Source: Tubulanus polymorphus
Lineage: Eukaryota; Animalia; Nemertea
DNA: 64,000 nt
Direction of reading: 5' to 3'
Assembly: GCF_964204645.1 (NCBI RefSeq)
Contig: NC_134025.1
Span: 14,942,001 to 15,006,000 of the forward strand
The notes under the pieces are model-generated. The model saw only the letters and a list, made by a program, of their open reading frames with translations, did not search any database and was not told where the DNA came from. A program made the position numbers and the translations under genes. Shown piece by piece: positions 492-61,395 of the stretch (its first letter is position 1; every line of letters begins with the position of its first letter).

Positions 492-3400
492 TTAACCATA
501 AGGTAATGTTTTTATTCCATCACCCAAAATATATCTTATATCATCGAAATGATTTAAACTAGTTTTTTCAACTTCATTAATGTACATTTCGTGATCTTCT
601 GATCTTAAACAATTCATTTAATGTTTCATTACAATTGAGATATATAAACACTTTATATAATCTTGAAATTCTATATGTTTATCAACCACATGTTTTGTTA
701 TTCCTTTTAACTTTTTAGCTGCATGATCTTTTGTTCTATAACTATACGTTTTACTTCTTATCCCAACAAATTCAATCATTTCATCAATTCATCTTTAAAC
801 TTACCAGGAATCTTTTTATTATCATTGCTAAATAGTTCATGATCTTTGGGATAATTGCTAAAATCAAAATGATGTTTTAATGTTTTTAAGTCTTTTGTTA
901 TGTCATTTGTCTTGATTTTTAGTATGTACGCGTCAGTATTTTTTTGGATTAATGGGAACCCAGAATTGAATGTTCCATCATCTGTTGATAAATCATAAAC
1001 ATAGTCAGTTGGGTTATATATTTCAAATAAATCTCTGACATCTTCTGTTAATTCTTTTTCTACATGCCTTAAGTTAAAACAATTTGGTTTAGATTTAATT
1101 AATTCTATATTCATATTAAATCCTAATGAATTACATAATATATACAATCCTGATATAGCAACATTTCCTTTTTGCGCAAATGTTATTACTCGAGATCTCG
1201 TATATTTTTTCTGTCCATCTGCTGCGTAGAATCCAATGAAGAACCATTTGCTAAAATTATATTTGGCATTTAATACATAATCTGGCACTATCTTTTCTTT
1301 TGTTGAAGTATTACTTTTCACTATTGCATGAATATAGAATTCGTCATTATATTTTATAGCAAAATCTTTAGGATTATTCACAAGTATTCTATAAACGGCT
1401 GATGATTTCATAACATCCATGATTCTAAATGTTTTATTTGAATTAACTTCTTCACAGTATTTCTTTATTCTTTTTAATAATTTCAAATCTTGATTGCATA
1501 AATACCAACAATATTTATTACCCCAAACATAATTATACACACCTGCTGAACCATCGCCCATGAAAAATCCTTTGATAAAATATTCTTTTTCTTCTAATGT
1601 TTCAGGTTCTATATTATAAATATTATCAATTATTTCATCAAATGACATATGATTCATTCTTTGGAAAAATCGTTTATGTAATAATTCATCCCCAATTTTC
1701 AGTTGGTTTTATTTCATCGCCATTTCGTTTAATTAAACTATGATCTTCTGTAACATCAACAAATCCTAATTTAGTTCTAACTCTATAAATCTTTTTATTT
1801 GTTTTATGCCTAATAATATTCTTTCCATCCATTTCTTGTCCAAACATCCATTAATCCATTTATTTGTATTAATTCTTTTTCAACATATGAAATATAACGT
1901 TCATTTTGTTTTGGAATTATTTCTGAAATTCTTCTTATCAATATTTTATCATTACATTTTAATAATATTGGGGTGTCAGCTGTTACAGAATCAAAATATA
2001 ATATTTCAATATGATTTTCCCCAAAAAGTGGTTGTAAAACATTGTATTAAAAATCATACATTAATAACTTTGATACTTCTAAAACAGTTGAACCAATGAA
2101 TATAGGTTTATTAAATTTCATTGACGTTCTTTTTAATTTTACCGCGGTTAAATAATCTTCAAATCTTTTATTTCCTAAATGTCTAGGACTTGATTGTAAA
2201 TGTCTTAATCTTTCGGAATTATTTACTAATTCAATATCATTTCTATTTCTAATATTTTCACATGTTTTACCATAAAAACTATTATTCATTAATTTGAAGA
2301 AATCTTTTTCAAAATCTGTTTTTGATATGGTTATCTGTTGTGTATCAAAATCTATATATTTTTCTAACCACTTCGATTGATTAAATTCAATATATCTATG
2401 TACTTTCTTTAATTTCATTCCTTGTTTTAGATACAATTTTAACATTCTATAATGACCAATATAATTGTATTTATTATTTTGAGTTAGTATTAATTTTTCT
2501 GTAAAAACATGATCTTTCGGTTTTATTTTCTTCTGGTATTCACTTAGATAACTATCATCTACAGCTAAATGTTAAGGGCAATAAGGTAAATTTCTTGTTT
2601 TAAACTTTATGTTATCAGGATATTCCAAATCAACTACAAAGAAATAACCAATTGGTACTTCATCTTTTAAACTCGTAATTGCGCTTTCCCAATCAGTTTT
2701 ATCATCTTTTTCAACTTCAGTTAATATAAAATTTTTGTATGGTTGAGGTTGCATCATTGCCCAACCATATAAATTATTGGCGTCAATATATAATAATTTA
2801 TATTCATCATTTGCTTTAAAATGTCTATCTCCCATAACACCACTAATTCCACCTCTAATTGATTTTTCAAATAATAAAACCATGTCTGGTTCTTTTAATA
2901 AATCTAACTCTACGTTAGTATATTTCAAACCACATTGTCAGGTTAAACCAGGACTAGAGTAGCAATAACAAGGATCAACATTAAAATGATTCAAATTAAC
3001 TTCTCCAAATTTTTCAAATATGTCAGCCAATATCATAACATCTGATTTCAAGTAAAGATCAACTAATTCACCATGATTTTCTACCTTAAAATGATTCCAA
3101 AAATGTAATGTTCTATTAAAAACTTCATCTTTCACATACTCCTCTTTTAATTGATCATAAAATTGTTCTTTTAATAATTCTGTTACATTAAAATCATCAT
3201 GTGTTTTATAAAATGAATCAGGAATTGCGCCTTTAAATCTCAATAATTTAAAATCTTGTTCATTTTGGTAATAATGTCGAGTTATTATAAAATCATTATC
3301 AACTAAACTTTTTGCTAAATTATCTAATGAACTTGCTAGAAATCTATAAGAATCTAAAAATCTAATGCAACCAAATTGAAATGAAATATAATTTTCAGAT

Positions 3401-5536
3401 GTTTTAGCTAATAGTTTAAAATCATATTTTCTTACATTTGCTTCATTCATAGCATTATATTCTTCTATTTCTTGATTAATTGCGCCCAATTTTCCTGATG
3501 ATTGTTTTATAAATAGATGGGCATCGTAGCCCGATAAATTATGAAATAATATTGGCACGAAATTAACTTTCTTAGCTTGTAAATTACATTCTTCATGAGC
3601 AGCTCCACGATATTTTGAATTTAAATGATCATGATCTCTAACTTTTTTATCAAATGAATAAAAACGTTTTTCACAATAACAACAATGAATTGCATAATTA
3701 AAATCAATTTCATCTTCTTTTGTCATAACCATTCTTTTATTTTTGTTTAATAATTTTGCAAAATCACTTTCTATTTCAATTATTTTGTTACAAAAATCAT
3801 TAACTACATCTTCACCTCTAAGAGAAATATATTGACTTTCATATAATTCAGGATAATTTGATTTTATGTAAATTCCATAAGCAGCAGCTCTTTGATGATT
3901 TTTTTTAATTGTGTTTATAATTGGTGGATCTTGAATTATGTCTTCATTTAATTCATTTCCTTTATCCATTGATTTCAAAAATTGCTTTTTATTGTATATT
4001 TCTTTTCTATCTTGATCAGTTAATTCTTTATTCAACGATTCAAAATCCCCATAAATTACAAATGGAACAATATTTTTAAATTTATGATTAGTAATTTTCA
4101 ACTTACAATCTTTTTTTGTTGGTATTATTAATTTACAAAAATCTTTATTATCACATAATTCTTTATGTTTTAATAATGTATTCTCAGTCATAAATTTAGA
4201 TAAACATTTTCTACATAGATAAATTTTATGATGATGATCACTTTCTGTTCTAAAGAATAAATCAATTTGTTTTAACCACATATAATGTTCATTATCATCT
4301 TTTTTGTAATATAACAAATCTATAGCATTTTCATCATCATAATATTCTGTTAAATATAAAGCTTCTAATGTATAATCTTTAATATTTTCACCTTTTGTCT
4401 TTGATAATTGCATTAATTCAAATACATTTATTTTTAAATTATTAACTTGTTCTATTTTAGGAATCATCTTTATAGTTACTGGATATTGATCAATTTTATA
4501 TAATGTTTCATATCTCCGTATTTTGTTATTCTAAATCTATGCGTAATATCTTCTGTTGGGTGTAAGCAACTAATAATTGACCATAGAAAACATTTATTAT
4601 CTTCATTTTGAACATTTATTACTGCTTTTGTTGTAAATGGTAATTTGATATAACTTGATGCTTTAATATCCTTTTCTGTTGTAAAGTTTGAATCATTTTT
4701 AAACATTGTTTTACTTTTTGATGTTTTATTCATTTTTGTATTATAAACATTTAAATCTAAAAATATAATTTCATTCAATGTTAAACCAGAACCCTCAAAA
4801 TATCTTTCTTCAATATGACGTTTAAATTCATTAAATATTTTTTCTAACTTCTCTTTTATTTGTGTTTTTGAAATTATTTCTTCAGAGAGTGTTTGAATAT
4901 TATAATCAATTTTCTCTTCTGACTTCATAAAACTTACTTTCCCAGAGATACTAATTTTTGGATATTCAACATCTGTTATCAAATCTAGTATTTTTCCCAT
5001 TATTTCATTAAATTTACTATAATCTTCTATTGTTGTACCTTTAAAAAATCTAAATATAATGGTTTCAGGACCAATTTTACAATGTAATGTTTCTAAAATT
5101 TCAATTGTATCTTTTATTTCTAGTGAATCGATATAATTTCTAACATTTTCCATGTAAGGTTTATTTGAAATGGATTTAGTTTTTGAAGTTGGTTTTTTAC
5201 TTTTTGAGGTTTATCATTGAAATAATCTATTCCTAAAACATTATTACTCAAATTTTGATGGTGTTTTTGTGATTTGGTATGTCTTTCATAATTCCTTTTT
5301 ACTATAAATTCATTACAAACTTCACATTTTATTTCATCAACATTCATATTTTCTAATTGTTCCTTTCTTTCATTGGAATTTTCTGGTGTTTCAAAATCTA
5401 TAACATTTTTTATATGATTTGCAGTTTTTTCATGTCGTGTTTTATTAGATTTATCGACGTATTTTTTACAATATGTGCAATATTATTGATTTTCATTAAC
5501 ATAAATTTGTTTTGTGTGTTGTTCACTCTCTCCCAT
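492..5536 (-). pseudogene. polB: Protein-primed family B DNA polymerase (pPolB-A), intein-containing, with frameshifts and stops
   Basis: Start MGESEQ at 5536; two C2H2 fingers; INVQNEDNKCFLW; ExoI YGDFES; FHNLSGYDAHL; RFLDSYRFL; motif A YIDANNLYGWAM; motif B KLMNNSFYGKT; motif C YFD|TD split by an intein; C-terminus ...KTLPYG* at 492. Confidence 0.93.
938..1989 (-). mobile_element. Intein with LAGLIDADG homing endonuclease inserted in pPolB motif C (YFD|TD)
   Basis: Block A SVTADTPILLK directly after YFD; block B GFVDVTEDHSL; LAGLIDADG motifs FIKGFFMGDGS and FFIGFYAADGQ; block F YVYDLSTDDGTF; C-terminal IQKN followed by +1 Thr (TDAY). Absent from the paralogous pPolB-B. The N-terminal part has about 4 frameshifts. 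Confidence 0.93.
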
Positions 5537-5824: not shown

Positions 5825-6427
5825 AGATTTATTTATATTTGAACCGCATAATATGTTAGTTACTGGAGTAACAAACTGTGGTAAAACACATTTCATATTA
5901 AACTTGTTAGAAACTATTTATAAGAATCATTTTGATAATATAATATTATTCTGTCCTACTTATGAAATGAATAAAACATATAATAGAGATATAGTTGAGA
6001 TAAAAAAGTTTATTATATTAGATCCTAAACAGTAAAAGAAAATTTAGATAATTGTATAAAAATAGCATAAGATATTTATAAAAGTTCAAATACATTATTC
6101 ATTATAGATAATTGCGCTAATTTACATGATTCTAAAGTTAGAGAAAGTGAGTTATGTTATCTAGCTTTCTCTGGGAGACATTTCGGGATAACAACATGGG
6201 TTTTAAATCAAAAATATAATTCAATTGTTAAAGATTTTAGGGAGAATATAAGATTTCTAGTTTTATTCTACAATAAAGATAGAAAATCTATGCAACAATC
6301 ATTGGAAGAAAATCAAATTATACCTACCGAGTTACATGATGAATATATGAATAAATTAAAGAATAATAAAGGTTCAAAATTATTACTGAGGCTTCAATTT
6401 CCATATGAATATAAGTTTATAAAATAA
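5817..6427 (+). pseudogene. A32/FtsK-like DNA packaging ATPase (frameshift near 6030 and an internal stop)
   Basis: Walker A GVTNCGKT; continues in another frame with Walker B TLFIIDNC, SGRHFGI, LNQKY and FRENI to a stop at 6427. Confidence 0.88.
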
Positions 6428-7654: not shown

Positions 7655-8892
7655 TTAAAACATAATACTCTCTAATTGTGAATTTACAATATTTAATTGC
7701 GCGTCAGATATAATATAAACGCGCATTTTGAAATTTAAACTTCCTTTTTTCTTTTTCATGAATAATTGTATTCCATCTTTAGTATTTTGTAGTTTTTTTC
7801 CAGAACCATGTAATGAATTATCCTCTGTTGTTCTAAAATCTAACCATAATGCATATTTATTACCGGTATAATAATCAATTTGATTAATATTAAAATTTTC
7901 AAATGATTTTACTTTTTCATTCATAAAATGTTTTCTAATTTCTGGCCATTGATCTATCATTCTCATTCCTTGACGACATATTTTATTTGCTATTCCTTCG
8001 ATAGTTATTTCTACTTTTGATATTTCAGGATTATAATAATTATCAACTTTTATTGCACCATTAGAATATGTTGGTAAAAAATATTAATATACCTTTAATA
8101 GATCTTCTTTGGTAGTTAATATTCTCATTAATTATTTCATCATTTGCATTAATAGTTACAGTTTTAAATTTTTCAATATAATCATATAATAATGAAAATC
8201 CTTGGTTGTATTGAGTTTGAATTATGCTAGCAATATTTTCATCAGTTACTGTATCATATTCCAAACATATATTCGATAATTCATAACCCATATCTTTATT
8301 AACGCTAGATAATACAATTTCATTAACAGGAGCAAATGTTATTTCGAATATAACATCTTCTTGAATTGCGTATATATATAAAATTATTATTTATCAATTC
8401 AAAATCTAATGGAATTTTATATTTGCTTCCATAAATCTTTTTTATCAAATTATCTACAGCATTAGTTACTACTGCGTTATTGGCTTCAGATCTTAATTTA
8501 TTTTGGTTTTCTGATTGGATGCCTTGAAATATCATATTATTTCTATTTTCTTTTGTTAACCATAAATCTTTATAATGCATAAATAAATTATAATTATCTA
8601 ATGAGAAAACTGTTTCTGGCCCAATCTTTACAGCTAATTTTTTAATCAAATATCTCCCAACATTATCAACAACATAATTATTATCATGACCAGTTACTTT
8701 CATATCAGCTGATAAATAGATACTATTTGGAACATAAAAAGTATTTTGTGTTAATCGAGGGATTCTAACATATAAAGTTTCATCGGGATTAATATTAGAA
8801 GGATTATGAGTAATTATATGATGTGATCTTTCTGCTTTAATAGCATTAGATATTCTAGAATTCTTAGAAGGACTTATGTAACTTCCGCTCAT
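7655..8892 (-). pseudogene. Double jelly-roll major capsid protein, split into three ORFs
   Basis: About 410 codons; HNPSNINPDETLYVRIP, NVGRYLIKK, YKDLWL, YELSNICLEYDTV and KYALWLDFRTTEDNSLHGSG resemble invertebrate Polinton/adintovirus MCPs (recognised from memory); position in the element fits. Confidence 0.72.
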
Positions 8893-10426
8893 TTATTTAA
8901 CAAAAAAATTATTTTTTTTTCTATCATATTCACTAACCCAAAAATAATTGCACTTACAACTGTAATTACAAATAAAATAATATGTTCAGCAGCAAAGTTA
9001 AGAATATTCCCAGCAGCGTTCAATATAAAACCAACAATTGATGCAATAACTCCAGGTAAAGCTGCGGCAGATTTTTTAGATAGTTCCCATAAATATTTTG
9101 CTAATTTTTTTAAACCATCCTTAACTTTTTCTTGTATAGAATTATTATCATTCGGGGGTTTATCTGGTTTATTTGGAGTAGGAGTAGATTTCAATGAATT
9201 TGATATAGCTAAACCTATTGTTGTGAATACCATAGTTACAGCTGTTAGAATTGAAAGAATTGTTATACCTTCTAACTTAAATAATAATTTTATTCTATCT
9301 TTCAATGATATTTTAGAATCTGGTTTTATTATTAAATCTTTAAAAATAACTTTTAATTTTTTAATATGATTAAGATCATATGATTTTAATAATATATCTC
9401 TTTCTTTTTCCTGAAATTCTTTGTTATATTTTAAATCATCAATTTCTTTTTCTAAAGATGACTTTCTGCTTTCATAATCAGCTTCCTCTATTACTTGAAG
9501 ATCTCTATTTAATTCTAATTGTTTTAATTCTTCATTTGCATTAGTTAATTCTTTTTCTAACATGGTTATTTTAGAAAATCTCATCTTAATATTAGCAATT
9601 TCACCAGCTGATTCTTGCATACCTTTAATTTCTCTACGTGCTTGTTCAGGAAATGCTTCTAATTCATCATCAGTTAAATCAAGTAATCCTTTTTCTAATA
9701 GATGTTGTATTTGATTTGTTCCAGTACGAGATGTATCTAAAGTACTATTCATCTCTTCTTCTGAATCTCTTAATCTATCAATTTGTTTTTCTAATACTAA
9801 TTGTAATTGACTTGAATCATTATCAATTTGTTGAATATCTCTTCTCGTTGTTTCTGGTGTTGAAGTTCTTAATTTATCTAATCGATCTCCATACTCTTCC
9901 AAATTCTTTCATATTATCATTTCTTTCTTCTTGTGTAACATCAGTTATTTCATTACTATTACTTACTATTTTAATTCTATCTGGTTCTAATTTTTCCAAA
10001 GTTGATTCTGCTAATATTTTGTTTAGTCTTGTCCTTTGATTAGTGATATCAATATAATAATCACCATCAAAATGATAATAATATTTACCTTTTAAAAGTT
10101 TTAAATCTCCTACTAAACATTCGGCATCTCTATAATTTATATTATACCCAGATCTTTCAAATACAGGTTTGAATTTATAAATATCTTCATTATAATCTAA
10201 TCTCTTTTTTTACTAAATGTGGATTTACATTTTCGGGATTTATTCTCTGTTCATCATTTCTATCAAATTCATCTGTTGATGGGGCTTTAGAACCACTATC
10301 TGCTGGATTAGAATTATACGCTGATTCGTCATCATTATCAATATTAGTTTCATTAAAATCAGGTTGTGGTTCATCACTTATACCGGGGGTGTCACCAAAA
10401 GTATCCATTGGAATATCTTCTTCCAT
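8889..10426 (-). pseudogene. Acidic/coiled-coil protein with C-terminal hydrophobic helices
   Basis: ORFs 10190-10426 and 8889-9902 join by collinearity with the paralog 22643-23920; hydrophobic segments ITILSILTAVTMVFTTIGLAI and AAALPGVIASIVGFIL...IILFVITVVSAIIFGL. Confidence 0.7.
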
Positions 10427-10447
10427 TTATATAATAAAAAATTAAAA

Positions 10448-11759
10448 TTAAAAATATAATATTCCTCCTATAACAATTCCTATACAAGTTAAAGCTAATT
10501 TAGCATTTTCATGGGATTTATTATCATCATTTAGTTTAATTATTTCATGTTGAATATTATCAGTTTTAATATTTTCTGATGTATTGTAATCTTTTATTTT
10601 AGAATCATTATTTAATTTAATATTATTAGTTTTAGTTTCTGTTGATTGAATATGTTTTTTATTTTTTTCACCTTCCATTAATTTTGGAGCAGTAATTATC
10701 TTTTTATATATATCATTTAATCCAAATGAATTATTTATTGTTGCAGTTTTAATTAGATTATTATAACCAATTATATTTCCCATCTTTAATACTAAATCAT
10801 TAGAAATAATTAATAGATTAGGACCTATACAATAATTTAATCTAATATGTGATTTATCTAAGTAATTTTGATATCTTACAATGTTTTCTGGAATCGATCT
10901 ATTTTTATCATTATGAATGGAATCTTCAAATAATACTTTGAATTGTTTCTGCGAATCAAATGAATGTATCATTTCCAACTATTGGTGATCTTGTTGAACT
11001 TGCGCACCTAAAATACATATCAAATAAGTTCTAATTGATTGATTTATTCTTTGTATGCCCGATTTTGTAAAACCTTCACTATTTTCTAAAATAAAATTAA
11101 TCCAACCATTATTATTATCAATTTTATAATTATGATAAGCTCCAATTCTATGCATATAATCAATTCTTTTTATTTCATACTGTTCACCAATACCTTGCAA
11201 TTTACCATGCGCTCTAAAATCGGAATTAATATTTAAAAATAATTAAATTCATAATAATTAAATTCATTACATATTTTATAAAACTTAGATAGATTAATAT
11301 TATTATCCAATTCTTTAAAATATTTAGATCCGGGTAAAGGACATTCTAATTCATTTAATATTATTCTGATTTGAAAATATGTGTGAAATCTAAATATTGT
11401 GTGAATTAATTTTAAATCAGAATATTTCAAATTTTTATCTAAGTTATTTAAATGATCATTCCAAATTATACCACAACCAGTTGTTGCACAATAAACAGCA
11501 AAATTTAATTGATTCTGCCAATATTTCATATTAGATTTTACTTTATATATATGATATTCATCTCGAGTAAAAGTAACTTCATATCTGCTAAATATATTTT
11601 CCATTTTAGAAATAAAAAACTGTGATTCAGTAACATAAATCTCTAAATAAGTTAATGAAATTAAACTGAATTTTTATATGTAATATTTTTAATCAAATCT
11701 ATTGCAGGAATATTATATTTAATTGATTTATTATATTGGAAAGCTTTTGGAAACCCCAT
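10448..11759 (-). pseudogene. Conserved Polinton protein (WQNQLNFAVYCATTGC motif) with C-terminal TM helix
   Basis: Three ORF pieces collinear with the paralog 21303-22626; ends LALTCIGIVIGGILYF. Confidence 0.7.
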
Positions 11760-11775
11760 TTATATAAGTAAAAAA

Positions 11776-12210
11776 TTAATAATTTATTAATTCTTTTAAT
11801 AATTTATCTTGTTCTTCAACTGTAATATTACCATTTAAACTCATTATATAATCTAGTGTATTCTTTAATTTATTAATTTCTTTTATATTAGTTTTAATTT
11901 TTTCTTTATTACTTTATATATTTAATTTTGAACTTATGCCGGTTAATACACTTGATTATAATCCGAACACACCAATTGATATAGCTAAAGGTGTTAATGG
12001 ACTGAATATTGCTAGAAATGTTATTACAGAACTAATTGTAACCGAACCACTGATAATAAGATAATATATAATTTTACTTTTTAAATATTTTTTCTTTTTT
12101 ATCTTTAAGTCACTTTCAAATTCTAATATTTGTTTTTCTAAATATATTTTTAATTTAGTTTTACTGATATCATGATGAATAATATTAACACCATCAACTT
12201 TATCATCCAT
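11776..12210 (-). pseudogene. Small two-TM protein
   Basis: Hydrophobic IIYYLIISGSVTISSVITFLAIFSPLTPLAISIGV; paralog at 20851-21286. Confidence 0.6.
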
Positions 12211-12228
12211 TTATTTAGCAAAAAATTA

Positions 12229-12663
12229 CTAATTAGTAAATTTATAAGCAACAAATATAACTTTAACTGTTCCCCCTAAAATCCAAATTATTCCATATTT
12301 CTTCTGTTCATTACTTGGGGTATAATAATCTGATATTGTAGGTTTATGTAGATGTAATTTTTCTTTATTGGTTACTGCGTTTTATAAACTCATTGCATCA
12401 TCAACTGATTGAAAATCTCTATGTGAAATCTTCTGATTACATAATTCCTTGTTAATATAATCCATATAGTTTTGTCTTTTTTCTCTGTATTCTTCTGCAG
12501 CTTTATTATATTTTTTTTAAATTATATTTATATTTAAGTTATGTCTTTTTTGTTCTGTTAATGAACCATTTTTATCAATATGTATAAATAAATAACCACC
12601 ACCAGTAAATGCTAAAGCGTTAACAATTGCTGATCCTAAAATAGTTATAATTGCAGAAGCCAT
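12229..12663 (-). pseudogene. Small protein with N- and C-terminal hydrophobic segments (not in ORF track)
   Basis: MASAIITILGSAIVNALAFTGGGYLF...; paralog MAPAIITIVGSAIVNALVFTGGG at 20404. Confidence 0.6.
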
Positions 12664-12686
12664 TTATTTAGCAAAAAAATATGCAT

Positions 12687-12908
12687 TTATATGGGAGGAA
12701 TATATTTTTGTTTTTCCAAATAATCAATAGTTAAATTAGATAAAGTAACTGCTAATGTTAATTTTAAAATATCATTAATATCAAATCTATCAACATTAAC
12801 ACTTCCCATTTTAAATACTTTTTTTAATACCATTGTATAACCAACAGTTCCAACTGATAATAATGCTCCATTATATAAACCAGTTATTATCCACTTATTA
12901 TCACTCAT
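12687..12908 (-). CDS. Small hydrophobic protein
   Basis: Intact 73-aa ORF, conserved with 20160-20387. Confidence 0.7.
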   Translation of the reverse strand: MSDNKWIITGLYNGALLSVGTVGYTMVLKKVFKMGSVNVDRFDINDILKLTLAVTLSNLTIDYLEKQKYIPPI

Positions 12909-13252
12909 TTATTTATAAAAAAATTACTATCTTCAAAATATTTAGTTATCTTATTTATGATTAATTCAACATTTATTTCAATACTAGTTTCATTTTCATA
13001 TATTACAGTTATTATTCTTTTAATATCATCAATGATAAAATCTTCATCTAATTCATAAAATCTTAAAGACTCGGTTATCTTTTCTACATAAAAAGTTTCT
13101 TTATCTATTGTTTTTTCATACTCAAATGTTGTTTCATTAGAAAATGCAATATTTTTAATATGTGTTATTACATCATTAATGTTAAATTTCATTTCTTTCT
13201 CATGTTTAAAATCAAATCCAAAACATATACTCGATCCAACAGTTATATTCAT
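12905..13252 (-). CDS. Hypothetical viral protein
   Basis: Intact 115-aa ORF; paralog 19817-20152 shares MNITVGxSICFGFDFKH. Confidence 0.7.
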   Translation of the reverse strand: MNITVGSSICFGFDFKHEKEMKFNINDVITHIKNIAFSNETTFEYEKTIDKETFYVEKITESLRFYELDEDFIIDDIKRIITVIYENETSIEINVELIINKITKYFEDSNFFINK

Positions 13253-13268
13253 TTATAAAGTGAAAAAA

Positions 13269-14026
13269 TTACTCTTTACATCTTATAATTAATTCATAAA
13301 TTATAGGAAAGTTATTCAAATCAATTACATAACCATTATGATTTCTTATTTCTAATTTGAAATTGTTAAATCGTGAAATACAAGGTTTAAAATCAGATTC
13401 AGCTAAATTATAATTAATTTGTGTTCCCAATTTTTTAAAATTTTTTTAATGGTATAATATTTGATATACTAGAATTACAAGTTATATCTTTAGTTGCTTC
13501 GAAATTTTTGTAGCATCAATTAAATTGCAATAAATATAAAAGTGAAAAAAGGCATTATATTTGAATTACCATCTACGTTTCCTGTAACAATATCTGGTGC
13601 AATTCCTAACAATTTAGCTAATGGTTTTCTCACCATAAATGAATGTTGACTTTCATCATGTAACTTTATTTTAATTTTATTTGTGCTATCACTTTTTATA
13701 AATCTAATTAAAAATTTATCTTCACTTCTAATTTTCAACCGTGCTCTTCTATTAATTTCTTGCGCTAGTGTTTCTAAATTATATAATCCTGGTTTTAAAA
13801 TTAGATGAAACCATTTATTTATATTTCTAAAATGAATTAAAAAAATATTATGATCAATAGTTTTACTCGATACATTATAAAAAGAATTACATAAACTTCC
13901 ATTTACTAATTCTAAATCAACACAATTCTTAAATTCTCTATCTAATTGTACTAGTAAATTATGAGATTTATAATTTGTAAGTTTTCTAGAATCAACATGT
14001 ATTCTATATTCTTTTAATTCTACCAT
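13269..14026 (-). pseudogene. Minor capsid (penton, single jelly-roll) protein
   Basis: YRIHVDSR, NSFYNVS, LKPGLYNLETL; after frameshifts ends FNNFKLEIRNHNGYVIDLNNFPIIYELIIRCKE*, a typical penton C-terminus. Confidence 0.7.
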
Positions 14027-14423: not shown

Positions 14424-17400
14424 TTAACACGTTAGAATTCTTTTCATTATCTCCTTCTCTTTTGTTTCTTCTCTTTTGAACTTTAGATATACATCTAAAT
14501 TGCATCCATAAGAAACTGTATGAATTCCATCATCTAAAATATATCCTTTATCATCAAATGGATTCAAACTAACCTTTTCTATCTCTTCAATAAACATTTC
14601 GTGATCTTCTGATATTAAACATTTCATCTTATGTTTTCTAACTTCTTCATTGAATATACAATTGATATAATCTTTGAAATGAATATTCTTTTCTACTACA
14701 CTTTTAGTAATTCCTTTTGTATATATATATAATTCCTTTTAACTTTTTAGTATCATGTTCTTTAGTTTTATATGAATACATTTTAGATCTAATACCAATG
14801 AATTCAATCATTTCTTCACCACCTAATTCATCCTTAAACTTCCCGGGTCGCTTTTTATTATCATTGTTAAACAATTCATGATTTTTAGGATAGTTACTAA
14901 AATCGAAATGATGTTTTAATGTTTTTAAATCATCAGTTATGTTATTAGTTTTTATCTTTAATATGTAACTGTCAGTATCAAAGTATAGAATTTCTATATG
15001 CTTTTCTCCAAAATGAGGTTGTAATACATTATAATAGAATTCATACATCAATAGCTTTGATATTTCTAAAACTGAAGCACCAACATAGATTGGTTTATTA
15101 AATTTCATAGAAGTTCTTCTCATTTTAACTGCAGCTAAATTTTCATCAAATATTCTGTTACCTAAAAACTTAGGATATGATTGTAAATGCCTTATCCTTT
15201 TACCATTACTAACTAACTCAATATCATTTCTATTTCTAATATTTTCACAAGTCTTACCATAGAATGCATTGTTCATTAACTTGAAGAAATCTTTCTCAAA
15301 ATCAGTTTTAGCTTCAGTTCTCTGTTTGGTGTCAAAATCTATATATTTTTCTAACCATTTAGATTGACTGAATGAAATCTATGTACTTTTTTTAGAACCA
15401 TTCCTTGATTCAAATAAAACTTCAACATTCTATAATGTACTACATAATTATATTTATCTTCCTGAGTTACCATTAACTTTTCTGTATGAATATGATTTTC
15501 GGGTTTAATTCTTTTTTGGTAATTTGATAATTCTTCATGAGTTACAGTTTTATGTTCAGGGCAGTATGCTAGATTTCTAGATTTAAATTTAATATGTTCA
15601 GGATATTCTAAATCTACAACAAAGAAGTAACCAATATCTGAATCATCTGCAATATCTAGGATTCTTTTATTCCAATCAAATTTATCATTATTTTCATGTT
15701 GTAAAACTTCACTTATTTCAAATACTCCATAAGGTTGTGGTTCCATCATTGCCCAACCATACAAATTATTTGCATCTATATATAATAACTTATATACAGG
15801 GTTATCATTTACATTGAAATATCTATCCCCTAATACACCTGAAACTCCTCTTATAGATTTTTCAAATAATAATAATTGATCTATATTAGTTAACAAATCC
15901 ATTTTTATATCCGTAAATTTTAATCCACAATCCCAAGTTAAACCTGGGCTAGAATAACAATGGCAATTATCAATATTGAAATATTTTGGGTTTACATCTC
16001 TAAACCTTCCAAATATATCCGATAATAATAATACATCTGATTTTAAATATAAATCTACTAATTGTCCATGATTTTTCATTCCAAAATGATTCCAAATATT
16101 CAATGTTCTATTATATACTTCATCTTTAACATATTCAGTTTTTAATTCATCATAGAATTGTTCTTTCAATAATTCAGTTATATTAAAATAATTATGATTT
16201 TTATAGAAAGAATATGGAATTGCGCCTTTATATCTCATTAATTGGAAATCATCATTATTTGGATAGTTTTGTTTTAATATTTTTAATTCATCATCAACTA
16301 ATGATTTTGAAGTTATCTAATGAACTATTTAAAAATCTATATGAATCTATAAATCTTACGCAACCAAATTGGAATGATATATAATTCTCAGATATTCTAG
16401 CTAACATTTTAAATTTATAAGTTGGTATTTTATCTTTTGATCTATTTGAATTTAATCTTTCTATTTCATTATTAATTTCTTCTATTTTATGGCATAACTG
16501 TTTGATAAATAAATGTGCATCATATCCTGATAGATTATGAAATATAACTGGAAGAAAATTTACTTTTTTGGCTTGTAAATTGCAATTCTCATGCGCAGCG
16601 CCTCTAAACTTTCCATTCAAATGATCATAGTCTCTTACTTTTTTATCTTTATAATTAAATATCTTTTCACAATAATAACATTTACCCGTAAACACAAATG
16701 CTTCTTTATCTTCTTCTGTCATAATTATTTCTTTATTTGTATTCAATAATTTACTAAATCTTATTTCATATTCAATTAATAAGTCACAAAAATGATTGAT
16801 AACATTTTCATTTCTATAATGATAATATTCACTTTCAATTAGTTCTGGATAATCAGATTTAATATATAACCCGAAAGCAGCAGCTGATTGATGAATCTTT
16901 TTAATTGTATTTGTTTTTGGTGGTTCATCTGAAAAATCATTTTCATTAGAATTTAATTTCTTTCTTTTATAATATATTTCTTTTCTATCTTGATCAGTTA
17001 ATTCTTTATTTAATGATTCAAAATCTCCATATATTACAAATGGTACTTTATTTTTGTAATCATATTTTTTGAATTCTAATATTTTATCTTTTTCATTTGG
17101 TAAAACTAATTTACAATAATCATGATTATCACATAATTGTTTATGATTTAATAATGTACTTTTATTACTGAATCTATGTAAACATTTTCTACATATATTT
17201 TACGATGATGATCACTTTCTGTTCTAAAGAATAAATCGATTTGTTTAATCCACACATAATGATTTTCATAATATAACATATCTATAACATCATTTGAATC
17301 ATAATCTTTTGATAGGTATAAAGGTTCTAATGTTAATTGTTTTATATTGTTGCCTTTTGTTTTTGGTAATTTGATTAAATCAAATACATTTATTCTCAAA

Positions 17401-18466
17401 TTATTATCTCTTTCAATTTTGGGATATTTTTAATTCTAACTGGATACTTATCTATCTTATAATTATTTTCAAATGGTTTATAATTTGTTAATCTAAAACT
17501 ATGTGTAATATCTTCTGTTGGATGTAAGCAACTTATAATTGTCCATAGAAAACATTTATCATCAAAATTTTGTACATTTATAACAGCATTAGTTTTAAAT
17601 GGTAGTTTAATATAACTTGATGCTTCAATATCTGGTTCTTTATAATATGATACATTATTTTCATCTATTGGTTTTGATTTAGTTAACTTATTATATTTTG
17701 TGTTATACACATGTAAAGTCATAAATATTATTTCATCAAATATTAAACCTGATCCTTCAAAATATTTCTCTTCTATTTTAGTTTTTACTTCATTATAACA
17801 TTTATCTAATTTATCATCTATATGTTGTTTTGAAATAATATGTTGTGAATGGGAATTCATATTATATATTGGTTTATCTTCAGATTTTATAAATTTAACT
17901 TTTGATGAAATACTTATTTTAGGATATTCAACATCAGTGATTATTTTTATAATATTTTTCATATTTTCTAAATGTTTTTTATTTTCTTCTAATGTTTTTC
18001 CTTTATGAAATTTAAACTCGATAGCTGCTGGGCCAATATCACTTTTAAATGCTTCGGTTATGTCTATATCTTTTTTATTATCTAATGAATTAATATAATT
18101 TCTTACATCTTCCATGTATGGTCTTTTATTGTTTAATTTATTTCTTATTCTTTCAATTGTCTTATGTTTCTTATCATTATCAAAATAATCCTAACCTAAA
18201 ATATCATTATTCTTATTTCTAATATGACTTTTAGATTTTAAATGTTCATTATAATATCTTTTATCACTGAATGATTGATTACATGTATCACATTTGTATA
18301 TTTCTTTTTCATTCTTTAATTCATCTAATTTAGTTTCTAATATATGATCTTCATATTCTAATTTCAATTTATTCTCTAAATGTGTTTTAGTTTTATTGTG
18401 TCTTGATTTTTGGGATTTATCTATATTGATTTTACATGTTGAACAGTAGTACTTATTTGTTTCCAT
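14424..18466 (-). pseudogene. polB: Protein-primed family B DNA polymerase (pPolB-B), intein-free, with several frameshifts
   Basis: Two N-terminal C2H2 fingers, INVQNFDDKCFLW, FHNLSGYDAHL, YIDANNLYGWAM, MNNAFYGKT, uninterrupted YFDTDS, GKFKDE, SLNPFDDK. Confidence 0.93.
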
Positions 18467-18749: not shown

Positions 18750-18920
18750 GAGTAATAGGGGAATGTGGCTTTCATATCAAAGGTTGAAAGAGTTAGTGAG
18801 TAAAAAATAACAATAATTAGTCGCGCACACTCCTAATTCAACTGGAAATTATTGTTATTTTCATTTTTACGAGCTCGACCTTTCGACCTTTGGTATGAAA
18901 GCCACATTCCCCTATTACTC
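18750..18920. repeat. Inverted repeat/hairpin at the element B terminus
   Basis: 18750-18790 is the reverse complement of 18880-18920 (41 bp, 2 mismatches); inner arms AAAATAACAATAATT / AATTATTGTTATTTT. Confidence 0.9.
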
Positions 18921-19643
18921 GAAACAATTCTGGAAATTGATAAATTCGCACAGCAATTCTAACATTCCAACTGACAACGTCACCCTTACATCCAATGACT
19001 TTTTTGATCACTTCGCTGACCTAAACGCTCACAATGAGACCGAAGTTTTGGATACGGAAACAGATCTACTTTTAGACGATATAGATGACTCTATGCTTAA
19101 TGCTGAAATAACTATGCTAGAATTAAATAAAGCTATTCCTTCCTTAAAAAACAACAAAGCTACCGGTATGGATCTAATTTGTAATGAAATGATGAAAAAT
19201 TTCGATGATAATTTACGCTCATTCTTTCTTCAACTCTTTAAGATGGTATTGATGAGTGGCATTATCCCAGAAAGCTGGACTATAGGCACTTTTAAACCGA
19301 TATTTAAGAATAAAGCCAATATTGATTGTACGGATAATTATAGAGGTATAACGCTAGTTAGTTGTTTAGGCAAACTTTTTACAAATATCCTTAATAATAG
19401 ATTAACATGTTTTATGAATGTAAATAAACTTTTAAGTGAAAATCAAGCAGGATTTAGAGCGGGGTATTCTACTACCGATCACTATTCCCACTTAAGTCTA
19501 TTGTTGAGCTATACCTTAATCAAGGTAGACATCCTTTCTGTAGTTTCGTAGTCTTCCGCAAGGCCTTTGACTCCGTATGGAGAATTGCTTTATGGAAAAA
19601 GATGATGGCTTTAGGTATAAAAGGTCTCTTTTTTAACACCGTG
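18921..19643 (+). pseudogene. Non-LTR retrotransposon (LINE) ORF2 reverse transcriptase fragment
   Basis: LKNNKATGMDLICNEM, PIFKNK, NYRGITLVSCLGKLF, QAGFRAGYSTTDH and (frameshifted) FRKAFDSVWR. Confidence 0.9.
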
Positions 19644-22600
19644 CATTATGATTTAACAGAATGTGATTTTAAACCTTGCATTTCACAATTTAATAATTTT
19701 AAGTTAGAAATTAAAAATCATAATGGTTACTTAATTGATTTAAATAACTTTCCTGTGGTATATGAATTAGTTGTAAGATGTAACGAATAATTAAAGATTT
19801 TTTAATAATAATAGATATGAATATAACAGTAGGACCGAGTATATGTTTTGGGTTTGATTTTAAACATGGTAAAGAAATGAGAATTAAACTAAATGATGTA
19901 ATTACTGATATTAAACGTAAACCATTTAATAATGCATCAATGATTAATAAAGAAAATTATAATATAGAAAAAGTAACTGATTTAATCAAAACATCTTTAG
20001 AATATTATGAATTAAATGAGGATGGAATTATCGATGATATTAAAAACATATTATCTAAAATATATGATAATCATAAAAGTAGTAATGAAATAAATGTTGA
20101 AATAATTATAACTAAGATAACTAAATATTTTGAAGAAGGTGATTTTTTTTGATAAATCAATGAATGATAATAAGTGGATCATAACTGGTTTATATAATGG
20201 AGCATTACTGTCAGTGGGAATGGTTGGTCATACAATGTTATTGAAGAAAGTATTTAAAATGGGTAATATTAATGTTGATAGATTTGAAATCAATGATATT
20301 TCAAAATTAACATTAGCAGTTACTTTATCTAATTTAACCATTGATTATTTAGAAAAACAAAAATATATTCCTCCTATTAACGCGTAATTTCTTTGTTAAA
20401 TAAATGGCACCTGCAATTATAACTATTGTAGGGTCGGCAATTGTTAACGCTTTAGTATTTACAGGCGGTGGTTATTTATTCAAGCATATTGATAAAAATG
20501 GTTCATTTTCAGAATAAAAAAGACATAACTTAGCGTTAGAAAAATATAATAAAGCAGCAGAAGAATATAGAGAAAAAAGACAAAACTATATGGATTATAT
20601 TAATAAAGAATTATATAACCAAAATATTTCACATAGAGATTTTAAGTCAGTTGATGATGCTATGAGTTTATATAATGCAGTAACAAATCGTGAAAAATTA
20701 CATCTATATAAACCTAAATTATCAGATTATTATACACCAAGCAGTGAACAGAAGAAATATGAAATAATTTGGATTTTAGGTGGAACTGTTATTGTTATAT
20801 TTGTAGCATATAAATTTACACTTAATTATTTATTATTTTTTGTTAAATAAATGGATGATAAAGTTGATAATATTGATATCATTCCTCATGATATAAATAA
20901 AACTAAATTAAAAAAATATTTAGAAAAACAATTATTATAATTAGAAAATGATTTTAAAGTTAATAAGAAAAATATTTAAAAAGTAAAATTATATATTATT
21001 TTATTATTAGTGGTTCAGTTACAATTAGTTCTGTTATAACATTTTTACCAATATTCAGTCCATTAACACCTTTAGCTATATCAATTGGCGTTTTAGCTTT
21101 AAGTTCAAGTGTTTTAACCGGAATAAGTTCAAAATTAAATATAAAAAGTAATAAAGAAAAAATTAAATCAAATAAAAAAGAAATAAATAAATTTAAAAAA
21201 AATACATTAGATTATATATTAAGTTTAAATGGTAATATAACAATTGAAAAGCAGGATAAATTATTAAAAGAATTAATAAATTATTAATTTTTTATTAAAT
21301 AAATGGTAGATAGTTTTCCAAAAGCTTTCCAATATAATAAATCAATTAAATATAATATTCCAGCAATAGATCTTTATAAAAATATCACATATAGAAATGA
21401 AGTTTTAAATTCATTTATTAATTTAGATATTTATGTTACTGAAACTAATAATTTTAATGTTAAATGGAAAATATATTTAATGTATATACAATTAATTTTA
21501 CAAATTTAAATGAGGCATAACAATGGTTATCAAAATCTAATATGAAGTATTGGCAGAACCAATTAAATTTTGCCGTTTATTGCGCAACAACAGGGTGTGC
21601 TATAAGATGGAATGATCATTTAAATAAACAAAGTTTATCATTAATATTATCACTTTTTATATTTCAAACATATTCTCAAATAAAATTAAAATTAAATGAA
21701 TTAGAGTGTCCTTCACCAGGATCTAGATATTCTAAAGAATTAGATAATAATATTAATTTTTCTGAGTTCTATAAAATCTGTAATGAATTTAATATTAATT
21801 CAAATAATTTCAAAGCAAAAATTGGTACAATGGGTGGATTAGGAATATTATATACTAAAGAATTTGGTAAAATGATAACAAATTCGGATTTAAGAACACT
21901 AAATTGGAATGAATTACCAAAATATTATAATAATATACAACAACAAAATAATGATGGATGGATTAATTTCATATTAGAAAATAGTGAAGGTTTTACAAAA
22001 TCAGGCATACAAAGAATAAATCAATCTATTCGAATATATTTAATTTGTATTTTAGGTGCACAAGTTGAAACAATATCACCAATATTTGGGATTAATAATA
22101 CTTCATTTGATGCGCAGAAACAATTCAAAGTATTATTTGAAGATTCTATTCATAATGATAAAAATAGATCGATTCCAGAAAACATTGAAAGATATCAAAA
22201 TTATTTATCAGATAAATCTCATGTAAGATTTAATTATTGCGTAGGTCCTAATTTATCAATCATTTCTGATGATTTAATATTAAAAATGAGAAATATAATT
22301 GGTTATAATAATTTGATTAAAACTGCAATAATAAATAATAAGTTTGGGTTAAATGATATAAATAAAAAAATTATCACTGCTCCAAAATTAATGGAAGGTG
22401 AAAAAATCAAAAAGAATATACAAACAACTGAAATTAAAACTAAGAATATTAAATTAAATAATGGTCCTAAATTAAAAGATTACAATACATCAGAAATATA
22501 AAAACTGATAATATTCAACATGAAATAATTGAAACTAATAATGATAATAAATCACATGAAAATACTTAATTAGCTATAACTTGTATAGGAATTGTAATAG

Positions 22601-23920
22601 GAGGAATATTATATTTCAAATTGTAAATTTTTTATTTTATAAATGGAAGGTGTAGAAGGAATTCCAATGGGAAGACACGGGAAATAATAATGATGGATAT
22701 ATTGATGATGATTATAATGATGTAGGTGTTAATGAAACTAATATTGATAATGATAGAATGAAATATAATTCTAATTTACCAGATAGTGGTTCTAAAGCCC
22801 TGTCAACAGAGGAGTTTGATAGAAGAACTAAATCGAGTATAAATACTGAAAATGAAATTCTAGATTTAGTAAAACAAAATTTAGAATATAGTGAATTTAT
22901 TCATATATTCAAACCTTTATTTGAAAAATCTGGATATAATATAAATGATAGTGGTGCTAGACTTTTAGTAAAAGATTTGAAATTTTTAGATGGTGAATAT
23001 TATTATCGTTTGAAAGATAATTCGGATTATTATATTAATATCACTTATAAAAATCAAAATAGAATATTAGCAGAATCAACTTTGCTTAAGTTAGAACCAT
23101 CTAGAATTAAAAGAATAATTAATAGTAATGAAATCAAAAATGTTACACAAGAATAAAGAAATCAAAATATGCGAGTATTTAAACAAAGATTTGATAAATT
23201 ATTTAAAGCAATCAAAAATAATTTAGAAACAGAAACAACTTCTGAACAGAATACAACTTCCAAAACTAGTAAACTTAAATCGAATAAAGTTCCAAATGAA
23301 AAACTTTTACTTAATGGATTACTTGCAACAGATCAAGAATTAGAAGAATTAGATACATTTTTTGATAATGCAATTAGAGAAATTACTAGTATAAGACTTG
23401 CATCTGTTAAAATTGCACATGATAAAAGTATAAGAGATTTTAAAATTAAAACTTTAGAAAATGAATTAACTGATGCAAATAAAGAATTAAATCAATAAAA
23501 AGTTAGATTTAGAACAACAAGTAATTGATGAAATAGAATATAGACAAAAAGTATTAAGTTTAGAAAAAGCAATTGATAATTTAAAAGATAATTTAGAAGT
23601 ACAGACAGAAGAAATTAAATTTTTATCAAAATCATATGATTATTGTATAAATAGATTAAAAGTTATTATTAAAGAGTTAATAATAAAACCAGTTTCTGAT
23701 ATATCATTGAAAGATAGAATAAAATTACTATTTAAACTAGAAGGTTTAACGATTCTATCAATTCTAACAGCTGTAACTATGGTATTTACAACAATTGGTT
23801 TAGCTATTTCAAATTCTTTAAAATCTAGACCAAATCCTAAACCACCTGATGAACCCCCAAGTCATAATTCTATACAAAATAAAGTTAAAGATGGTTTGAA
23901 AAAATTAGCAAAATATTTAT
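19644..23920 (+). mobile_element. Partial Polinton-like element C: inverted, diverged paralog of the element B structural block
   Basis: Same gene order as 13410->9095: penton 3' end (19644-19790), 19817-20152, 20160-20387, 20404-20850, 20851-21286, 21303-22626, 22643-23920. Truncated before the MCP. Confidence 0.88.
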
Positions 23921-23984
23921 GTTATATATTTATTCATTTATGTTAAATATTTATATTTTTTTTAACTTTAGCAGATATACTAAT

Positions 23985-45065: not shown

Positions 45066-45727
45066 GGTTCACACGCTCAATTTTATAAGCCTACTGGTGC
45101 ATTAATAATTGTAACACATTCTCATAGTTACTTATAGCCAAAAAAATAGCCTAACTGGATTCTGTCCACGGACGAAAAGTGAACGCAACAGCCCGCTGGT
45201 ACAAGTCCCAAGTGGGCTAAAAATGCTATAGGTTCATGTCATCTCGCCCTCGGTAAATTGTGTCATCTTGGTAATTAGGTGGACACCAATGGCTCATTTG
45301 CATAAAGAAATAAACAAACACGAACAAAATGGCGATCTTTCTCGCCGATTTAAAGCTTAATTTCCGAGTGTAAAATGGATATAAAGACGATGATTTATCT
45401 GGACTGTATAACTCTGCTGATTCGATTAAGACCTATTTGAGGTATGCACACCCAAAAATAAGCGAAATATCCCAATAAGATCATGGACAATAGAAAATAG
45501 CCTAGACTATTTTAGTCAAAAGTTTTGAGTTACTACGATCGTCAAAAGCTACTTAGGATAATCAATCTAGGCCTATGCCAAAACAATAGTCCAACTTCCT
45601 AACTTCCATCGAATTACAGAACGGCCAGAAGGCCTATGACTGAGGTAGGTAAGTTGATGGGGGTTTATTTAAATGGATGAAATAGACACTCAAAGCCTAG
45701 TTCCTTTTTAGTCGGCCTACTACGTAC

Positions 45728-46100
45728 CTGATATTTTTAATTGGACTAATTTTGAAGTTCGTATCTTCGGTGACGTTCCTAATGATTCTTTTGAAAGATA
45801 AGGCCTTGGCACCAATGATGACGACACTGCAACCCAATCAAATGATCCTGGCATGGACTTTTCATTCACACAGTCGAAGTTGTAAATGGCCAGGCACCTT
45901 TCTCTCTCCTCTTCGACCATTTCTTGTAATAATGTATCCGTATCCTTAATATCAATCTTACATCCGCTATCGTCTGAATCTTCGAAACATAATTTCCTAC
46001 GAGCTCTGCTCTTAGAAGCCGACTGACGGCGTTTTAAAGACGAAATATCGCAAAATTCATTTCCATCCGCTGCGGAGCGCGCAACACACGCCATTTTCAT
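45728..46100 (-). CDS. Cip/Kip cyclin-dependent kinase inhibitor (CDKN1/dacapo-like), exon 1
   Basis: CDI domain: ARRKLCF (cyclin-binding RxL), YNFDCVNEKSMPGSFDW; ends QLKIS G|GTACGT (phase-1 donor inside the PIP box); likely start at 46100 or at AAAATGG 46094. Confidence 0.82.
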
Positions 46101-46184
46101 GTCCGAAACAATGTATGCCTCAACACACGACACACACTACATACACTCACACTGTGAGTAGGCCCAGACACGCAGCGTGCCAGT

Positions 46185-52711: not shown

Positions 52712-52986
52712 ACTCTAAGCCACTCATGTCAATAATTGAAAAACCCATTATGCTAAAACGTTATAATGAACGTTATTCTGTATATTTAAATGGAGGGGGG
52801 TATCAAGTTCTTTTGAAGATGTCAGTGGTGCTAATATGGAGGCGTTGGTAATGCACTTGAGATTTTCGGTGTAGGCCACATCCAACCCAGTGACTCCAGC
52901 GAGTTTTGTTTATAGTGTTTATTGTATCACATATGGACCATGCACCCGATCTCACAGTATCAAAGTTGCCAAATTCAGAATACTTT

Positions 52987-58200: not shown

Positions 58201-58275
58201 TATAACTAAAATACTCTATAAATCTCTACAAGTAGAGAGATCGCCACTCAAGACCATGGTTTCAACCAATGGTTA

Positions 58276-60495: not shown

Positions 60496-61395
60496 ATAAT
60501 AATAAGCCTAATGGATACTATGAATTGGAACAATGAAGCCTAAAGATGCCAGTTTGAAGGGTCTTGAATGTCGATCTACACTAAATGTTATAAACACAGC
60601 AGATGTTCTGCCCTAAAGTTATATGAAAAATATTTTACAAACAGCATTACTATTTAGCCAAAATAGCTAATTCGTAACAATAGCGTTACACATATTTCAC
60701 TTTGAGTTACAAGGGTTTCACATAGTGTTACAGCCTGTTACACCCTTGTTGCAGGGTGTTACATAGTGTTACACATATATCATTCTTAGTTACTAGGGAT
60801 TTCACATGATGTTACAGGGCGTTACAGCCAGTTACACGCTTGTTACAGGGTGTAACATAACGTTACACATATTTCGCTTTGACTTACAGAGGTTTCACAT
60901 GGCGTTGTTGCACGTGAATTGAGTGGGAGCATTTTATTAAATTAAAGTAGCATTTTAATGTGATGTGATCACTTGTGCTCATAGAGACCATAAGGGATCT
61001 CAGGACCGACTTGACCTCTGCTCAAGGATACTGGGGCCCTTTATCACTTACTGAAAGTTTCTTCTCCCATGGAGGCCCAAGGTAAAGTCTTTATTTTCTA
61101 TTGTCCACGATATTTTTTGTATATTTTGCTTAATTTTGGGTGTGCATACCTCAAATAGGTCTTAATCGAATCAGCAGAGTTGTGCAGTCCAGATAAATCA
61201 TCGTTTTTAGCTCACTTGGGACTATTACAAGCGGGCTATTGTGTTCACTTTTCATCCGTCGTCTGTCCGTAGACGGAATCCAGCTATTTTTTGAAGTTTT
61301 GAAGACGCTTCAATGTAGTGTCTTGATATTTGGGTTACACATGTTTCTACCCTTGACACATCTTAAGCCCAAAAACTGGCCCTGTCTGAATCAAG

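Follow-up and report, generated by a model that had tools for sequence, protein, structure and literature searches.

The window, the whole 64,000-nucleotide stretch that we analyzed, divides into two parts of different composition. From position 1 to ~24.4 kb it is AT-rich (GC 0.21–0.27), the remainder has a GC content of 0.39, and the transition is a sharp step from 0.23 to 0.38 near 24.5 kb. The AT-rich part is made up of rearranged pieces of up to three Polinton-like copies, with two near-complete genes for protein-primed family B DNA polymerases (pPolBs) and one remnant, and this array runs past the left end of the window. It also encodes a fragment of an A32-like packaging ATPase (6071–6427, plus strand; Pox_A32, E 3.6e-4, below cut-off) and a probable double jelly-roll major capsid protein in three frames (7655–8892, minus strand; Capsid_N, E 0.006 on 8326–8892, below cut-off). 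A fragment of a LINE-type reverse transcriptase is nested in the array (18817–19790, plus strand; RVT_1, E 1.4e-5), and a short inverted repeat beside it (18750–18929) is possibly a MITE. The inverted repeats in the array represent a duplicated gene block: Polinton genes form an inverted duplicate around the second pPolB (9088–13414 versus 19645–23921, ~80% identity). No rve integrase was detected in the window, either by Pfam in the 29 scanned frames or by tblastn with P0229, and no protease or terminal repeats were found there.

Beyond ~24.4 kb the flank is gene-poor and repeat-rich. It contains an ISXO2-like transposase in two frames (49882–50937) and a 2.2-kb direct duplication with 97% identity (52984–55229 and 58273–60504). 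The main sign that this flank is animal DNA is an exon encoding the N-terminal domain of a p21/p27-type CDK inhibitor (45720–46136, minus strand; CDI, E 3.4e-6; best PDB match p21, E 0.004), and the assignment of the host group rests on these Pfam and PDB matches.

The first pPolB is a Polinton-type gene at 495–5479 on the minus strand, with stops near 2047, 2572 and 2938 and frame changes near 785, 4518 and 5170. The second, at 14427–18466 on the same strand (DNA_pol_B_2, E 7.7e-7), lies 13 kb off, is frame-broken too, and shares ~73% DNA identity with the first. The identity of these enzymes as protein-primed polymerases is indicated by PF03175 matches on the second pPolB and on intact relatives, and by grouping with coral pPolBs in the tree. 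The first gene carries an insertion that splits motif C between D and T. On the minus strand, YFD is encoded down to 1990, the insert runs from SVTADTP (first base 1989) to IQKN (last base 938), and TDAY comes next; the extein reads ...EILYFD before the insert and TDAYILKIK after it. The second pPolB has an empty motif C (YFDTDS). It aligns to 496–939 and to 1986–5160 and lacks the insert; the vacant position falls between 14977 and 14976, and 25/30 and 22/30 bases are identical in the two flanks. Because it aligns to each side and reads YFDTDS without the insert, both ends of the insertion are fixed, and the placement of a 1052-bp insertion exactly between D and T by the first-pass annotation of this DNA holds.

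The insertion (938–1989, minus strand) is an intein coding sequence of ~350 codons with Hint splicing halves and a dodecapeptide LAGLIDADG endonuclease. All the blocks proposed in the first-pass annotation were located on the same strand: block A (SVTADTP, 1969–1989), whose Ser1 is the predicted first nucleophile; block B (DVTEDH, of the form TxxH, 1740–1757); two LAGLIDADG helices, KGFFMGDGS (1547–1573) and IGFYAADG (1214–1237), each with its acidic residue retained; and blocks F and G (YVYDL...FNSGFPLIQKN, 938–1003), with an F–G loop that is one residue short and Thr+1 at 935–937. In a class 1 intein, Ser1, the block-B His, the terminal Asn and Thr+1 carry out splicing. The frame at 779–1708 matched LAGLIDADG_3 (Pfam) above the cut-off (E 2.3e-6). 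The two N-terminal fragments matched TIGR01445 (intein_Nterm) in the correct order, weakly and below the cut-off (E 0.025 and 0.0035), and relatives scored above the cut-off of Intein_splicing or TIGR01445. The D|T-D site is common to the window copy, two intact relatives (P0002 and P0233) and Mimivirus, which bears out its earlier equation with pol-c. We confirm that 938–1989 is a LAGLIDADG intein, and that a Polinton-type protein-primed PolB carries it at the counterpart of the pol-c site. The copy itself is dead, because two frame breaks lie inside the intein (near 1821 and near 1698) in addition to the stops and frame changes in the polymerase; it is a fossil whose reading frame cannot be translated through.

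The nested LINE fragment, the stops, the frame breaks and the three rearranged part-copies indicate long residence in a chromosome, and the array is likely a Polinton-like element integrated in an animal chromosome. The sharp GC step and the lack of terminal repeats or an integrase in the window would also suit an assembly error that attached a free virus or a contaminant to animal DNA, in which case the intein would not be in the animal genome. The decay and nesting argue against such a join, as does the deep coverage of the family in a whole-genome run of one organism label (X6), and we regard it as improbable.

Of run X6 (raw whole-genome reads), 12% was read. The intein has a depth of ~170–230 along most of its length, with one bin at 87, compared with 250–290 in the sequence beside it. 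Six reads join 928 to 1990, i.e., across the intein position, and length variants relative to the window occur at both intein frame-break sites. From the depth, the junction reads and the length variants, it is likely that the intein-bearing family is multi-copy and mostly filled, with some copies empty, and that the lesions of the window copy are not in all copies. In about 150 reads of the same run, 3411 is connected to 5697 with a change of strand, which marks an inversion in other family members. Coverage in run X5 (a marine metagenome, small share read) was thin.

We searched for relatives with the intein and with the polymerase. The search with the window intein (22 longer and 6 similar-length proteins; 512 representatives at E 0.001, the best 150 examined) was led by pPolBs: the best matches among these 150 of 512 were P0002, P0003 and the 55-member P0025 cluster, along with the partial P0024, P0029 and P0199. 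P0002 is an unbroken 1693-residue pPolB with the intein at the same site and 62% identity to the window intein. The polymerase-only search retrieved 3,921 pPolBs, and the intein was found in three of the best 120 (P0002, P0233 and the partial P0237); no intein match was detected in the other 117, nor in the named pPolB relatives from Stylophora and Dendronephthya. P0233 (1537 residues) stands for a cluster of 136 members, with contigs up to 1 Mb. Unbroken intein-bearing polymerases, the intact copies that were sought, exist in P0002 and in P0233 with its cluster. The intein is in frame in these intact relatives, whereas the frame is broken in the window copy. Ser1, TEDH, YVYD, the terminal N, T+1 and both acidic LAGLIDADG residues are kept in all five full-length pPolB inteins. 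Against the Intein_splicing cut-off of 35.8 bits, P0003 (42.4) and P0233 (37.7) pass and P0002 (30.2) falls below. A model of the P0002 intein, of modest confidence (pLDDT 62), had the intein-endonuclease structures TliVMA and PI-PkoII as its best matches (E 2e-4 to 8e-4, TM ~0.3).

Many entries of the P0025 cluster (P0040, P0043–P0046, P0049–P0051) are short frames with scarcely more than the intein, followed by TNS instead of TDS. Many copies in this cluster are fragments or have lost the motif-C aspartate, and represent a decayed subfamily amplified as such. P0207, a Polinton-type pPolB near that of the window, is labelled Sulfurimonas in UniRef, likely through bin contamination. Scans of viral contigs with the window intein and with P0002 gave no match, as did a scan of genome contigs with P0025. 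The empty second pPolB matched three pPolB loci in viral contigs, two with empty motifs and one whose motif was not found by pattern. None of the 101 viral and metagenome loci carrying related inteins contained a pPolB.

The first-pass annotation had stressed a resemblance to the Mimivirus PolB intein and had proposed that the intein moved from a giant-virus polymerase into this polymerase. The resemblance is real: identity is 41% (131/322), within the 35–42% seen against giant-virus PolB inteins, and there are common motifs; haloarchaeal pol-c inteins gave weak matches at best. These values could suggest that the intein jumped recently and directly out of a Mimivirus-like polymerase into the element. 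However, identity is higher with other pPolB inteins, at 62% (P0002) and 46–52%, and all fall in one pPolB clade; GC is 0.26 in the window intein and 0.24–0.25 in the extein; and the Mimivirus intein as sister to the pPolB inteins was rejected (AU p 0.004). A jump of this kind is very improbable. The penultimate K in place of H, which had been listed as a Mimivirus-like trait, is present in 53 of 137 viral pol-c inteins, and is ruled out as a Mimivirus mark; pPolB relatives of the window intein have S or H at this position.

The divergence of the intein follows that of its host. For six pairs, the intein/extein identities (%) are 62/58, 49/45, 52/48, 47/48, 50/47 and 66/68, i.e., within four points of each other, and the branching of the window copy and P0002 against P0237, P0233 and P0003 is identical in the intein and extein trees. 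Because the identities track each other, the intein appears to be an old resident of one pPolB lineage. Direct transfer into this particular element, as first proposed, is not supported, given this pattern and the grouping with other pPolB inteins.

To place the pPolB inteins among their relatives, we reduced 182 inteins by identity to 144, and then to 52 and 32 rows for trees; this set excludes pol-b-site inteins and inteins missed by the search patterns. In the 144-intein tree the five full-length pPolB inteins form one clade with support 100. Rooted with a haloarchaeal pol-c outgroup (74 inteins recovered), the pPolB inteins join the viral radiation (93/97), in a tree whose backbone is unresolved and whose bootstrap had not fully settled. 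With four partial rows added, a mixture-model tree recovered eight pPolB inteins as one clade (100/97) that lies within the viral set (80/84), with the pPolB and viral inteins together against the haloarchaeal outgroup (88/83). The separate trees expected from the first-pass annotation were thus obtained in part. The extein falls among Polinton pPolBs, and the intein belongs to the giant-virus pol-c family; nesting among viral inteins has the support just given, and a position as sister to all of them passes the AU test at p 0.75 (52 rows, where the likelihood of the constrained tree was 22 above the free search) and at p 0.22 (32 rows). Mimivirus as the near source is not supported.

The F–G loop is one residue short in 15 of the 144 inteins: the five pPolB inteins, a nine-row subclade with the motif FNxG-xL, and P0145. 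It has the usual length in 128 of 144, and is one residue longer in 73 of the 74 haloarchaeal inteins. In P0145 a different loop residue was lost (judged by eye), and it is independent of the shared deletion. The FNxG-xL motif after which the subclade is named was picked out of the same data, and the indel counts as one character. In free trees the pPolB inteins stand apart from this subclade; a tree that joins them is as likely as the best tree (difference 0.02). The nine FNxG-xL inteins sit at four places of the host polymerase tree, seven in Mimivirus-related and two in gp43-like phage polymerases, which indicates that this lineage moves between unrelated polymerases. Neighbors of the Mimivirus-related polymerases are of eukaryote-virus type, e.g., PCNA, UCH, SET and RING. 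The shared loop points to the FNxG-xL subclade, from Mimivirus-related viruses and T4-like polymerases, as the best candidate source of the pPolB inteins. The direction from giant virus to Polinton would then follow from one shared deletion and a motif.

The same intein family could have had another source or direction: the pPolB inteins may be sister to all giant-virus pol-c inteins, or may derive from a T4-like phage polymerase or an unsampled virus. Both AU values allow the sister position, and the two gp43-like phage polymerases in the subclade (P0066, P0071) have the same short loop. Set against this, the mixture-model tree has the pPolB clade inside the viral set, seven of the nine loop-sharing inteins are in Mimivirus-related polymerases with eukaryote-virus neighbors, the intein family is far more diverse in giant viruses, and a phage source finds a single match among 50,697 GenBank phage records. 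We consider another source or direction unlikely, and favor entry from a large DNA virus.

Several related inteins occupy other hosts or sites. T4 gp43-like phage polymerases carry a giant-virus-type pol-c intein in P0066, P0071 (contig up to 236 kb) and L105:4001–4966, and the short F–G loop that P0066 and P0071 have in common with the Polinton inteins suggests another cross-group jump. Non-allelic spread of this intein family is seen in two type II topoisomerases (P0021, P0163), in which EGD|S sites are occupied by one or two inteins. Many giant-virus PolBs contain two related inteins, at the SAN|S and YGD|T sites (e.g., P0005, P0054, P0059, P0060), and in P0057, P0175, P0182, P0187 and P0191 the motif-C intein is shifted by two residues (YGDTD|S or C). 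Contig L148, binned as Acetobacteraceae, encodes an intein 32% identical to the Mimivirus one and is likely a mis-binned giant-virus contig.

We then compared filled and empty polymerases. In an extein tree of 124 rows (FastTree; the fused P0229 left out), the five carriers stand at five places and require five changes, all inside one 70-row clade. For four of them the nearest rows have no intein; the fifth, P0237, has as its sister group a clade of 57 rows in which two carriers occur. The most economical history has a single old gain, numerous losses and local spread. The P0233 cluster allows a closer comparison, at the protein level and for 15 of its 136 members, three of which were left out as fragments or because the pattern missed the site. 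Of the 12 full-length copies, seven are filled and five empty, and the exteins are 94–99% identical across states. All 10 of the 1193 alignment columns that separate the two states lie at −7 to +43 of the site; variants farther away occur in both states. Ten differences within 51 residues of the site are a prediction of homing with co-conversion. We spotted this clustering in retrospect, and the filled copies do not count as independent; a single ordinary recombination event involving two Polinton families could likewise produce it.

The intein could instead be a passenger, gained once and inherited vertically with many precise losses and ordinary recombination, with no homing among Polintons. 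The parallel intein and extein distances fit this account, as do the low frequency of the intein among the best 120 of the 3,921 pPolBs and the many degraded copies in the P0025 cluster. It sits less well with the conservation of both endonuclease motifs across inteins that are ~50% diverged. If the intein had been lost precisely, filled and empty copies in the P0233 cluster should have matching flanks; instead, the site is exactly where they differ, and the empty copies vary among themselves there (YTD|CDS, YFD|TDA and YGD|TDA). We judge a pure passenger unlikely, slightly more so than another source, and prefer persistence by homing. A D-C-D in place of D-T-D in motif C occurs, by pattern, in 27 of 118 intein-less pPolB rows (e.g., P0221, P0223, P0232, P0327), mostly in the clade that also holds the intein carriers. 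Our guess is that it is an escape from the endonuclease.

In intact relatives, the precursor is predicted to splice itself through Ser1, the block-B His, the terminal Asn and Thr+1, restoring D-T-D. The polymerase would depend on this reaction, because the intein splits a catalytic motif. Polymerase genes that lack the intein would be cleaved at this site by the LAGLIDADG endonuclease, and when the break is repaired on a carrier template, the intein and a little of the adjoining polymerase sequence would be copied in. The first jump was likely a short-homology repair in a cell holding both DNAs, because motif C is among the few stretches common to the two polymerase types. The first-pass annotation held that co-infection of one cell was required; we infer that co-infection is one route only, and an integrated element meeting an infecting virus would serve too. 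Our main reading, to which we assign a probability of roughly two in three, is that a motif-C intein of pPolBs lies here in a decayed Polinton-like element, likely in an animal genome, and belongs to one clade that probably goes back to a single old entry from a large DNA virus and has probably persisted by homing. The fuller picture of a living intein family of animal nuclear genomes, which passed from a large DNA virus to pPolBs, homes between Polinton copies and is evaded by empty copies through changes at motif C, is one we offer tentatively, as somewhat less probable than not.

The openly accessible main texts that we searched do not describe inteins in pPolBs of Polintons. Inteins are called absent from metazoan genomes in the text of PMC8529194, and neither animals nor small eukaryotic DNA viruses have an entry in section 5 of a survey from 2017 (PMC5784728). 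The main texts of PMC12220804, PMC3671162 and PMC13768754 mention inteins just in general terms, and the term is absent from that of bioRxiv 10.64898/2026.10.13.758929. New here, as a confirmed observation, is a pol-c intein in a new class of host enzyme; its placement in likely animal DNA, in a clade that is old, includes intact members and shows signs of homing, is an interpretation that the data partly support. A Hint-plus-LAGLIDADG intein in Polinton polymerases qualifies the statement of reviews that metazoans lack inteins, within the limit that it resides in an endogenous viral element and not in a host gene, a route for which algae are the precedent. It also adds protein-primed PolBs to the RNA-primed ones as hosts of the pol-c allele, and may be a molecular record of an exchange of DNA between Polintons and large DNA viruses. 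As one family includes both filled and empty copies, homing, co-conversion and target escape become measurable inside single genomes, and the intact natural copies would be inteins and meganucleases presumably expressed in eukaryotic cells.

We compared the Polinton inteins to known systems. The closest are the pol-c (site III) inteins of Mimivirus and other Nucleocytoviricota, for which the splicing residues are named in the Mimivirus case in the text of PMC549080. Both have the motif-C D|T-D site, Ser1 to Asn/Thr+1, ~350 residues and LAGLIDADG motifs, with 35–42% identity, and both form one radiation against the haloarchaeal outgroup. The hosts differ, being a protein-primed PolB (PF03175) in Polintons and a Pol-delta-like PolB in Mimivirus, and the pPolB inteins form their own clade on a long stem, with an F–G loop one residue short and a B-to-C spacer of 60–63 residues against 47 in Mimivirus. 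Haloarchaeal PolB-c inteins have the same site and blocks, but are ~437 residues long, give short matches of 24–31% identity and occupy a long separate branch. In its pPolB and its ATPase and capsid fragments, the element resembles animal Polintons/Mavericks (adintoviruses, PMC8502044, whose main text does not mention inteins), and its polymerase is related to coral proteins from Stylophora and Dendronephthya; it differs in that integrase, protease and terminal repeats were not found in the window. Endonuclease domains within Polinton polymerases have a parallel in the HNH and VSR inserts of pPolB2 (PMC10748475), and such inserts are speculated to stem from intein invasions in the text of PMC11071308. 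The main text of PMC10748475 does not use the term "intein" or describe a Hint domain or splice junction, whereas the window contains a complete intein that splits the catalytic motif. Inteins have also been carried into eukaryotic nuclear scaffolds inside viral DNA polymerase genes in algae and a labyrinthulid (PMC10710043, in whose main text Polintons and animals are not mentioned). Those are endogenous giant-virus genes in non-animals, whereas the intein described here belongs to a multi-copy Polinton-like element, likely in an animal, in which filled and empty copies stand side by side.
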